From a virus: DNA of 10,167 nucleotides. The notes under the pieces are model-generated. The model did not search any database and had not been told where the DNA came from. It saw only the letters and a program-made list of their open reading frames with translations. Below are positions 3,387 to 5,471 of this stretch, piece by piece; position 1 is the first letter of the stretch, and each line of letters opens with the position of its first letter. A program made the translations under genes and the position numbers. Location of the stretch: the UHGV virus genome UHGV-1332412, one strand, 5' to 3'.

Positions 3387-3398
3387 AGGTCGCCGCCC
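3387..3398. other. cosN cohesive-end site (12-nt overhang)
   Basis: Plus strand aggtcgccgccc is the reverse complement of the lambda 12-nt cohesive end GGGCGGCGACCT. It is flanked by cccgcg/ccccgtaacctgtcggatc, as at the lambda end junction. cosQ is expected just to the right (about 3399-3430). Confidence 0.85.
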
Positions 3399-3597
3399 CG
3401 TAACCTGTCGGATCGCCGGAAAGGACCCGAAAAATGATAATAATTATCATCTACATATCACAACGTGCATCTACGCCATCAAACCACGTCAAATAATCAA
3501 TTATGACGCAGGTATCGTATTAATTGATCTGCATCAACTTAACGTAAAAACAACTTCAGACAATACAAATCAGCGACACTGAATACGGGACAACCTC

Positions 3598-3792
3598 ATG
3601 TCAACGAAGAACAGAACCCGCAGAACAACAACCCGCAACATCCGCTTTCCTAACCAAATGATTGAACAAATTAACATCGCTCTTGAGCAAAAAGGGTCCA
3701 GGAATTTCTCAGCCTGGGTCATTGAAGCCTGCCGTCGGAGACTAACGTCAGAAAAGAGAGCATATACATCAATCCAAAGTGATGATGAATAA
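3598..3792 (+). CDS. Small basic protein (64 aa), possible ribbon-helix-helix DNA binder; resembles the small conserved ORF next to cos in E. coli cryptic prophages (YlcI/DUF3950-like, by recall only)
   Basis: ATG at 3598 with GGGA 9 nt upstream. Arg/Thr-rich N-terminus (MSTKNRTRRTTTRNIRFPNQMIEQINIALEQKG) gives a beta-strand-then-helix pattern typical of RHH proteins. It is on the strand opposite to the packaging and lysis genes. Confidence 0.5.
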   Translation: MSTKNRTRRTTTRNIRFPNQMIEQINIALEQKGSRNFSAWVIEACRRRLTSEKRAYTSIQSDDE

Positions 3793-4154
3793 ACATCCCG
3801 GTTTCTTCCACCATCGCACCGGAAAAGCGACTATGAGGGTAACCCTGCGTCTGTCAGCACAGTAAAACCCGGTGTGCATCGTTTTTGATTATTCCCGCAC
3901 ACTCACGCAGAAGGAATTCCCCGTCGGGCTACGGTCATGGTTAATGCGGGAATACGGCGACGATACAGCGCAGCTAAAAGGGTAATAGACGGATAGACCG
4001 GTTTATTTCATTCCACAGGATTCTGAGTGTCCCCAACTTCCTCCAATAGTCTGAGCGTACACCTATATAGTTTTAATTTTCATCAATCCATTTAACTATC
4101 GTTTAATTGTTGTCACATAGGATTCCGCCGTTTTTAACAATGCAGGATAATAAG

Positions 4155-4448
4155 ATGAAAAAAATGTTGTTTTCTGCCGCTCTGGCAATGCTTATTACAG
4201 GATGTGCTCAACAGACGTTTACTGTTGGAAACAAACCGACAGCAGTAACACCAAAGGAAACCATCACCCATCACTTCTTCGTTTCGGGAATTGGACAGGA
4301 GAAAACTGTTGATGCAGCCAAAATTTGTGGCGGCGCAGAAAATGTTGTTAAAACAGAAACCCAGCAAACATTCGTAAATGGATTGCTCGGTTTTATTACT
4401 TTAGGCATTTATACTCCGCTGGAAGCGCGTGTGTATTGCTCACAATAA
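4155..4448 (+). CDS. bor: Bor lipoprotein (serum-resistance / lysogenic-conversion lipoprotein), 97 aa
   Basis: Internal ATG at 4155 preceded by AGGATAATAAG. Translation MKKMLFSAALAMLITGCAQQTFTV...GIYTPLEARVYCSQ has a signal peptide plus lipobox (LITGC) and closely matches lambda Bor by recall. It is opposite in orientation to the lysis genes, as in lambda. The ORF-track start at 4107 is probably too far upstream. Confidence 0.9.
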   Translation: MKKMLFSAALAMLITGCAQQTFTVGNKPTAVTPKETITHHFFVSGIGQEKTVDAAKICGGAENVVKTETQQTFVNGLLGFITLGIYTPLEARVYCSQ

Positions 4449-4479
4449 TTGCATGAGTTGCCCATCGATATGGGCAGCT

Positions 4480-4941
4480 CTATCTGCACTGCTCATTAAT
4501 ATACTTCTGGGTTCCTTCCAGTTGTTTTTGCATAGTGATCAGCCTCTCTCTGAGGGTGAAATAATCCCGTTCAGCGGTGTCTGCCAGTCGGGGGCTGGTT
4601 GCATTATCCACGCCGGAGGCGGTGGTGGCTTCACGCACTGACTGACAGACTGCTTTGATGTGCAACCGACGACGACCAGCGGCAACATCATCACGCAGAG
4701 CATCATTTTCAGCTTTCGCATCAGCTAACTCCTTCGTGTATTTTGCATCGAGCGCAGCAACATCACGCTGACGCATCTGCATGTCAGTAATTGCCGCGTT
4801 CGCCAGCTTCAGTTCTCTGGCATTTTTGTCGCGCTGGGCTTTGTAGGTAATGGCGTTATCACGGTAATGATTAACAGCCCATGACAGGCAGACGATGATG
4901 CAGATAACCAGAGCATAAATAATCGCGGCAACTCTGCTCAC
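4480..4941 (-). CDS. Rz: Rz i-spanin (inner-membrane spanin subunit)
   Basis: N-terminal TM segment ([19 protein letters not shown]) followed by a long charged coiled-coil-like region. Likely GTG start at 4941..4939 (MSRVAAIIY...) overlapping the endolysin stop (GTGA coupling); the ORF-track start at 4956 is a TTG. It contains Rz1 in the +1 frame. Confidence 0.88.
4539..4721 (-). CDS. Rz1: Rz1 o-spanin (outer-membrane lipoprotein spanin), nested inside Rz
   Basis: 60-aa ORF wholly embedded in Rz in another frame. Signal peptide with lipobox ([10 protein letters not shown]) and a proline-rich mature part (KPPPPPAW), the classic Rz1 signature. Confidence 0.85.
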
Positions 4942-5471
4942 TGCTCTATCCCCCAACAGGCTAATGCGCTCTCCTGATCACGACGAATAACCTGACCGTA
5001 ACAGTTATTTGAACGAAGGCGGCAATTGCGCCCCCTGTCCTTAATCCACCAGCGAATCGCCTCGCAGGCACCTTTACGATCACCTGCATTCAGCCGCTTA
5101 TAAAATGTCGACGGAAAACACTTACCGGGGCCAATGTTATAGGGACAAAATGACGCGATACCCGCTTTTTGTGGTTCGGTCAGTGTTACTTTAATATTGC
5201 GATCCACCCATGCCAGTGCCTTATCACGTTCAATAGCGTTAACCTGGTCGCATTTTTCCTTCGACAGTTTCATACCGGGAAAAACGGGTTTTCCATCCAC
5301 CATCGTGGCACCCCGACAGATGGTCCAGATGCCGGACCCATCGCGGTATGCCGTTGTGTGGTTACCTTCTTTTTCATCCAGAAACTGGTCGAGAATATCA
5401 GGCGCGGGCGCACCGACGGCAATCAGTGCCAGAACGGCAGCCGACAGGCCGTATCTGATTTTTGCGTTCAT
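4938..5471 (-). CDS. R: SAR endolysin (T4-lysozyme-like muramidase with N-terminal signal-anchor-release domain)
   Basis: 177 aa. Gly/Ala-rich weakly hydrophobic N-terminal segment ([15 protein letters not shown]) followed by an E-x8-D-x5-T catalytic motif ([16 protein letters not shown]) typical of T4-lysozyme-family (GH24) enzymes such as phage 21 R and P1 Lyz. It is paired with a pinholin upstream. Confidence 0.88.

Follow-up and report, generated by a model that had tools for sequence, protein, structure and literature searches.

A probable mosaic right end in a lambdoid prophage contig, with a 434-type Rz-cos-terminase segment beside a different holin and endolysin set

The window analyzed here, the whole 10,167-nucleotide (nt) stretch of UHGV virus genome UHGV-1332412, carries a lambdoid cohesive-end (cos) site, terminase genes and lysis genes. 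The region from 3387 to 5471, which spans the cohesive end (3387) to the start codon of the endolysin gene R, raises the question of where a lambda-type packaging module gives way to lysis genes of another kind. A sequence-only reading had placed a single recombination junction between bor and cos, at which a lambda-type cos/terminase module would be joined to a lysis module of phage-21/Qin type, with most of lambda's bor-cos DNA lost. We determined the sequence relationships of the window, the breakpoints between them and their occurrence elsewhere. The results make it very probable that the region is an ordinary mosaic right end of a lambdoid prophage, in which a 434-type segment running from Rz through cos to the terminase genes follows a different holin and endolysin set upstream. 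The raw observations of the sequence-only reading proved mostly right, and its single-junction interpretation only partly right. The layout is already known, being textbook lambdoid mosaicism that is common in Escherichia coli.

All phage genes of the window lie on the minus strand save bor and an open reading frame (ORF) of the DUF3950 family, both on the plus strand, and the standard lambda map runs from high to low window coordinates. The region would be composed of three tracts that differ in ancestry.

1-3809: tract 1, the DUF3950 ORF, cosQ, cosN, cosB, Nu1, A, W and the 5′ part of B (B′); an uninterrupted packaging unit of lambda/434 type
3810 to ~4945: tract 2, Rz/Rz1, bor and the bor flank; a tract common to lambda, phage 21 and 434, here as the 21/434 allele
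~4945 to at least 6151: tract 3, a Qin/Shiga toxin (Stx)-type cassette with an S21-family pinholin, DUF1327 and an RrrQ-type endolysin with a signal-anchor-release (SAR)-like N terminus

Tracts 1 and 2 together represent the phage 434 arrangement.

The boundary between R and Rz

With its ends joined, phage 434 (OL657226) is colinear with window 1-4943 at 98.1% identity, with one gap. The two share a short bor-cos interval, a single copy of a 12-mer located there, the DUF3950 ORF and the R3 allele of cosB (T at position 53). Upstream of Rz, in contrast, 434 has a 933W-like pinholin followed directly by a 165-amino-acid (aa) R21-type SAR endolysin, with no DUF1327 gene. Phage 434 is not alone in this likeness, since PhiR34_1 matches window 1-4945 at 98.7%, and the tract from Rz to the head genes is common to the window, PhiR34_1, Turner, mEp332 and the Lambda_ev series at 97.8-98.7%. 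On the other side, phage vB_EcoS-689R5 (ON470583) is colinear with window 4481-10167 at 94.4% and shares hok, the lipoprotein gene, YdfU, RusA, Q, tRNAs, S, YdfR, R and the start of Rz. After Rz, however, 689R5 continues with an HNH endonuclease gene and then a terminase of another kind, whose subunits are smaller, in place of bor, lambda cos, Nu1 and A.

The features at this boundary are the following.

4155-4448, plus strand: bor, an iss-like outer-membrane lipoprotein gene (Pfam Lambda_Bor, 9.9e-31); 96/97 residues as in phage 21 and 89/97 as in lambda
4480-4941, minus strand: Rz, the i-spanin (Pfam Phage_lysis, PF03245, 9.4e-54); 149/153 residues (97%) as in lambda and 145/153 (95%) as in phage 21
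4539-4721, minus strand: Rz1, the o-spanin, inside Rz (Pfam Rz1, 2.6e-20); 59/60 residues as in phage 21 Rz1
4850-4945, minus strand: the R|Rz junction zone, which is the actual edge of the lambda/21/434-like tract

The GTG start of Rz overlaps the stop codon of R as GTGA (4938-4941), and ATGA stands at the homologous site in lambda, phage 21 and PhiR34_1. Matches of the window to lambda, phage 21, 434 and PhiR34_1 all stop at 4940-4945, that is, at the R stop and Rz start; the lambda match over 4101-4940 is at 94.1% identity. The best match of the left half, 689R5, holds at ~94% down to ~4850 and then drops to ~78%. Past ~4850 it shows 8 to 14 mismatches per 50 nt, with one 50-nt exception, versus 0 to 4 per 50 nt for 434 and lambda from 4900 to 4351. 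By these alignments the non-lambda lysis genes have their sole boundary with lambda-like DNA at the R stop and Rz start (~4850-4945); the bor-cos interval is not that boundary.

The conserved 5′ end of Rz, its first ~90 bp, is the likely crossover zone. As this stretch is conserved among Rz alleles, homologous recombination within it could have joined a 689R5-like phage (Q-tRNAs-S-DUF1327-R-Rz) to a 434-like phage (Rz-bor-cos-terminase).

Chi sites (GCTGGTGG) are frequent in the window, with six present against 0.35 expected from shuffles, a count reached in 0 of 200 shuffles; Chi-rich lambdoid phages are on record (PMC12315714).

5046-5053, 6772-6779, 8901-8908 and 8958-8965, minus strand: Chi sites
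8316-8323 and 8368-8375, plus strand: Chi sites

Four of them are on the phage upper strand, oriented so as to act on RecBCD that enters at the right cos end, and the DUF968/YdfU gene contains four of the six. We considered Chi-stimulated recombination as a cause of the junctions and rejected it: the nearest correctly oriented site (5046-5053) is inside R, ~100 bp beyond R|Rz as viewed from cos. No Chi site occurs between cos and Rz, and thus Chi explains neither junction specifically.

The packaging module and the lysis cassette

The sequence-only reading had described cosN, cosB and the Nu1-A-W-B genes as near-identical to lambda, and this was borne out. Window 1-3809, from B′ through W, A, Nu1, cosB, cosN and cosQ to the 64-aa DUF3950 ORF, aligns with lambda at 98.08% identity over 3,809 bases with zero gaps, whereas phage 21 reaches only 65-69% DNA identity in the terminase/cos region.

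1-564, minus strand: 5′ part of the portal gene B (first 188 codons; B′), inside the lambda tract; 186/188 residues as in lambda B
561-767, minus strand: W, head-tail joining protein (Pfam gpW, 5.8e-38); 68/68 residues as in lambda, 48.5% identity to phage 21
764-2689, minus strand: A, terminase large subunit (Pfam GpA_ATPase and GpA_nuclease); 637/641 residues as in lambda, 65.9% identity to phage 21
2664-3209, minus strand: Nu1, terminase small subunit (Pfam Phage_Nu1, 2.4e-101); 178/181 residues as in lambda, 51.9% identity to phage 21
3233-3349, minus strand: cosB, with R1 at 3233-3248, R2 at 3276-3291, I1 (the integration host factor [IHF] site) at 3313-3325 and R3 at 3334-3349
3387-3398, minus strand: cosN 12-nt cohesive end GGGCGGCGACCT, the same in lambda, phage 21 and 434
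3422-3428, minus strand: cosQ, GGGTCCT, 24-30 nt before the right end; sequence and spacing match the annotated cosQ of phages 21 and 434

The subsites of cosB were carried over from the annotated records of phages 434 and 21. At the protein level Nu1, A, W and B are 98-100% identical to lambda; the changes are K48R, A75T and L132I in Nu1 and D185E, E245K, R303S and T466I in A. The first 200 bases differ from lambda by five substitutions. All the marks of a lambda-type module are present: the 12-nt 5′ overhang GGGCGGCGACCT at cosN with cosQ ~24-30 nt upstream, the R3/I1/R2/R1 array of cosB with its CGTTTCC core, and Nu1 and A of lambda sequence type. The 21-type cosB sites, CGTGTCGG and CATGTCGG, are clearly different; the cosB and terminase of phage 21 have a different specificity, and its terminase and W proteins are 49-66% identical to those of the window. 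The match extends to Qin, the cryptic prophage of E. coli K-12, whose nohA-cos-ynfO segment shows 98.2% DNA identity to window 2681-3760.

CosN, cosQ, I1, R2 and R1 are identical to lambda. The R3 site, AGGTGTTTCCGTTCTT, carries C53T relative to lambda, a T replacing C at base 1 of the conserved CGTTTCC core. A defect in cosB was considered as an explanation and rejected. Phage 434 has this allele too, as do 91 IMG/VR contigs, and C53T is therefore a natural functional variant.

These data indicated that the packaging genes and every cos subsite belong to a single lambda-type tract with matched specificities. The lambda/434-type terminase would thus recognize its own cosB and cut the matching cos, which is the basis on which packaging competence may be expected. 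The matching of terminase and cos, which had been read as a compatibility preserved through module exchange, is correct and at the same time trivial, because cosQ, cosN, cosB, Nu1 and A are contiguous in one tract.

The lysis genes upstream of Rz are of a different composition.

4938-5471, minus strand: R, a 177-aa GH24 endolysin of Qin RrrQ/Stx-phage type with a SAR-like N terminus (Pfam Phage_lysozyme, PF00959, 8.1e-24)
5535-5885, minus strand: a DUF1327 (YdfR-family) gene of 351 nt, between S and R (Pfam DUF1327, 7.5e-43); 73% identity to Qin YdfR
5890-6105, minus strand: S21-type pinholin with a dual start (Met1/Met4) and an MKSMDK N terminus (PF04971, 1.4e-35); 70/71 residues as in S21

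The sequence-only reading had called this cassette phage-21 type, and for the holin that description stands. The gene has the two transmembrane domains and dual start of a class II pinholin, and S21 itself is annotated as S21-71 antiholin and S21-68 holin. The holin DNA, however, is only 83% identical to S21, with 34 of 216 bases different, and the codon differences are 30 synonymous versus 1 non-synonymous. This pattern indicates an old allele that would be under very strong purifying selection, and the low DNA identity argues against a recent exchange with, or import from, phage 21.

The endolysin is where the description fails. R shares 91.5% of its residues with Qin RrrQ and 88-89% with Stx-phage endolysins, in contrast to 55/155 residues (35%) for R21 (33% by tblastn against phage 21), and no nucleotide match between R and R21 was found in the alignment with phage 21. 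In the phage-21 cassette an R21-type endolysin follows S directly with a stop/start overlap; here a DUF1327 gene intervenes. Such a gene stands between holin and endolysin in Qin (ydfR) and in 689R5; the cassettes of phage 21, lambda and 434 lack one. Its position inside the cassette suggests a possible lysis-related role.

The N terminus of R was compared with those of known endolysins. Residues 9-23 form a hydrophobic segment with 53% Gly, Ala and Ser and a mean Kyte-Doolittle value of 2.15, preceded by the basic residues K4 and R6; the corresponding values are 2.20 and 60% for R21, and lambda R scores 0.25. By sequence, R thus has the weakly hydrophobic, Gly/Ala/Ser-rich N-terminal transmembrane domain after basic residues that is looked for in a SAR protein. 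The GH24 triad is present as E35-x8-D44-x5-T50, at the positions found in R21, and the matches in the PDB include the R21 structures 3hde and 3hdf (~1e-15) and RrrD (4zpu). Since both segment and triad are comparable to those of R21, R is probably a SAR endolysin, exported, membrane-tethered and released on depolarization, as its pairing with a pinholin would also have it. Lysis would then proceed in order: the pinholin, with its antiholin from Met1, depolarizes the membrane, the tethered endolysin is freed, and Rz/Rz1 disrupt the outer membrane.

R contains eight cysteines (52, 74, 109, 118, 136, 150, 157 and 172), versus four in R21, and none is in the N-terminal hydrophobic segment.

The known systems compare with the cassette as follows. 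Lambda has a class I holin (S105/S107) and a cytoplasmic transglycosylase R unrelated to the R of the window. Phage 21 (OL657228) shares the pinholin and, at 97.3% DNA identity, Rz/Rz1, bor and its flank, but not R or the DUF1327 gene. Qin, ordered essQ-ydfR-rrrQ-rzpQ/rzoQ ... ydfO-ynfO-cos-nohA, agrees in the succession holin, DUF1327, 177-aa RrrQ-type lysozyme and in YdfU (87%), but its holin EssQ is only 82% identical and its Q is unrelated (33%). It also has a DUF2514 RzpQ/RzoQ spanin pair (the window Rz is 27% identical to RzpQ), no bor, and, in the stretch that leads from the lysis genes to cos, cold-shock genes and ydfO (DUF1398). A lambda/21-type Rz with embedded Rz1 is present in the window; it is common to lambda and 434 as well and hence does not discriminate. 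The cassette is thus a patchwork of an S21-allele holin, DUF1327 and R of Qin/Stx type, and Rz/Rz1 of lambda/21/434 type.

Alignment to lambda and phage 21 had been proposed as the check on the sequence-only reading. The packaging genes do not diverge from lambda, in agreement with it, but Rz/Rz1 are about as lambda-like as they are 21-like, which partly tells against it.

The bor-cos interval

What, then, changes between bor and cos? The interval was said to retain about 360 bp and a 64-aa ORF, and it does: the distance from the bor ATG (4155) to the DUF3950 stop codon is 362 bp, and cosN lies a further 199 bp beyond that ORF. The whole distance from bor to cosN is 756 bp, versus 1,750 bp in lambda, where it is ~1 kb longer.

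3598-3792, plus strand: DUF3950 (YlcI/YnfO family) ORF, 64 aa (Pfam DUF3950, 2.3e-20); 61/64 residues as in the lambda ORF, annotated as DUF3950 in 434
3798-3809, minus strand: 12-bp boundary GGAAGAAACCGG, the exact bor-cos junction and indel point, five bases past the DUF3950 ORF stop
3810-4154, plus strand: bor upstream flank, 21/434 allele; 95-99% identity to phage 21, patchy 80-87% to lambda

No ORF of at least 40 aa lies in the flank at 3810-4154, and an extra small ORF in the 362-bp spacer was rejected, as all candidates there are at most 37 aa and unsupported.

Lambda-grade identity to the cos-proximal tract begins at the 12-mer. Lambda has two copies, GGAAGAAACCGG and GGAAGAACGCGG (10/12 match), 1,072 bp apart and bracketing ybcV-ybcW, whereas the window has one copy; the extra 1,072 bp of lambda sits exactly at the bor-cos junction. 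Phage 21 matches the window over 3864-4945 at 97.3%, becomes patchy to 3800, and is unrelated from there until cos, where it has four other ORFs, one of them TonB_C.

Some of these facts favor a single bor-cos junction, with lambda-type cos and terminase on one side and phage-21/Qin-type lysis genes on the other. The relationship does change there, as phage 21 homology ends and lambda has an indel at the very point where lambda-grade identity starts (3809). Yet lambda homology does not end at the indel. In a 100-nt identity profile it returns in patches at 80-87% in the bor flank and at 73-92% in the bor 5′ half, lambda having another allele of both, and at ~99% in the bor 3′ half and Rz, and it runs on through Rz/Rz1 to 4940. 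Within bor, which lies on the strand opposite to the lysis genes, identity to lambda falls from 99% to 73%. Phage 434, together with at least 20 further plaque-forming lambdoid phages, is colinear with the window over the supposed junction, and the endolysin is not R21-like and has its boundary with lambda/21/434-like DNA at R|Rz.

The two parts of the supposed lysis module also assort independently. We took from IMG/VR the 54 loci that have this cos allele together with 3.2 kb or more of upstream sequence, and scored them with 13 marker probes covering R type, DUF1327, holin, bor, ybcV/ybcW and the DUF3950 ORF. They fell into 21 presence patterns of lysis and cargo genes, with the Rz-bor tract independent of the S-DUF1327-R genes; lysis and cargo genes reassort freely among these loci. 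By these comparisons the single-junction model is largely refuted, and we consider it unlikely.

The bor-cos site is a cargo indel with an allele change, and the lysis module does not have its edge here. What is "missing" from the interval is an insertion/deletion polymorphism, with a single 12-mer copy in the window as in 434. Because 434 and many plaque-forming lambdoid phages are colinear from Rz through cos to the head genes, the short interval is a common inherited haplotype and not an event specific to this prophage.

The 12-mer itself deserves comment. When lambda, phage 21 and IMG/VR loci were compared, five unrelated continuations were found after GGAAGAAACCGG in other phages, with the bor side conserved in all haplotypes. 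At least five unrelated gene sets abut it: the DUF3950 ORF, ybcV/DUF1398, the TonB_C set of phage 21 and two further types on IMG/VR contigs. Where annotation or ORF calls exist, in the window, lambda and 434, the 3′ end that it adjoins is that of a cargo gene reading leftward (ybcV or the DUF3950 ORF). One might propose that the 12-mer and the conserved ~70 nt on its bor side are a preferred exchange point, a "cargo slot" at lambdoid right ends, but we consider this idea improbable; the 12-mer may be merely the end point of conserved bor-promoter DNA. An active role in directing insertion or deletion would make it a defined site of moron exchange. Lambda, phage 21 and 434 are documented to have differing morons (PMC9119081).

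The 12-mer was also considered as part of an intrinsic terminator and rejected, as the surrounding CCGGT...ACCGG can pair in no more than a 5-bp stem, the loop measures 15 nt and a T run is lacking. A promoter and terminator scan of 3200-6900 gave counts no higher than shuffled controls, with no convincing element at the junctions.

Occurrence elsewhere and remaining explanations

The short interval might instead reflect a decaying cryptic prophage losing DNA near cos, in the manner of DLP12 or Qin, both of which retain in K-12 a lambda-type cos and nohA/nohD remnants. That is very improbable here. Each gene of the window is intact and full length, the short interval is found in viable phages as well (434, PhiR34_1, Turner and the Lambda_ev series), and related isolate contigs keep an unbroken lambdoid gene order across the 21 kb between recE and the head protease.

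That the mosaic is an artefact, in which an assembler joined two co-occurring lambdoid prophages through shared repeats such as Rz, has next to no probability: although the window is a complete metagenome contig and near-identical lambdoid segments can mislead assemblers, three independent isolate assemblies have its gene order, and both junctions occur in one aligned piece in complete genomes. In two of these assemblies, GCA_021650275.1 and GCA_022974865.1, the match runs colinear through all 10,167 bases at 99.2-99.3%, on contigs of 57 and 73 kb; in the third, GCA_036914955.1, the gene order is as in the window. Since isolate assemblies carry the colinear layout, the window is not an assembly chimera.

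The arrangement is widespread. At least 17 complete E. coli genomes contain a 1,601-nt probe over both junctions as a single piece with 100% coverage; coverage was at least 80% in 1,059 of 5,426 E. coli genomes and in 26 phage records. As for the window as a whole, no complete E. coli genome covered it at 99% or more; the best had 89% coverage at 97.4% identity and was interrupted by insertion sequence (IS) elements. Published accounts agree with such a picture, as lambdoid phages shuffle modules frequently and 21-type lysis modules occur in others (PMC12315714), and in 434B the whole Q-lysis region of 434 is replaced by DLP12 prophage DNA (PMC9119081).

Some points weigh against a mosaic formed by a crossover in Rz, or against parts of it. 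The actual donors appear only approximated by the nearest sequences, since 689R5 reaches just ~94% identity in the left half. Few informative sites occur within the first ~90 bp of Rz, with 3 to 7 mismatches per 50 nt for all candidates. The short bor-cos form may be ancestral or a deletion, as the data fit either. Finally, no experimental report on SAR behavior of this RrrQ/Stx endolysin type was found in the literature consulted.

The remaining features of the window lie upstream of the lysis genes.

6398-6707, minus strand: four tandem tRNA genes (Met-CAT, Lys-TTT, Thr-TGT and Gly-TCC), between Q and the holin
6902-7597, minus strand: Q
7588-7947, minus strand: RusA
7960-9078, minus strand: DUF968/YdfU
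9583-9975, minus strand: lipoprotein ORF
Right edge of the window: 3′ end of a hok-family gene

At the site equivalent to the four tRNAs, phage 21 has tRNAs for Asn and Thr, and Met, Thr and Gly tRNAs are annotated in the 689R5 record. In an Rfam scan of the whole window these four were the sole matches, with none within 3387-5471. The right edge (10031-10167) is 97% identical to the hokD region of Qin, and a HOK_GEF gene ends there in related loci. The window corresponds at 100% identity to an entire 10,167-bp metagenome contig (ENA ERZ1311499 NODE_1933), and so both of its ends are assembly breaks, not biological ones.

Taken together, the value of these results is mainly for annotation: they set the breakpoints at R|Rz and the 12-mer (3798-3809), and the endolysin should be labeled RrrQ/Stx type, not R21. 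The 12-mer boundary is a possible input for a systematic survey of cargo slots near cos. Beyond this, the locus illustrates the known modular evolution of lambdoid phages, in which packaging genes keep their linkage to their own cos while holin, endolysin, spanin and cargo genes reassort at gene boundaries or short conserved sequences.

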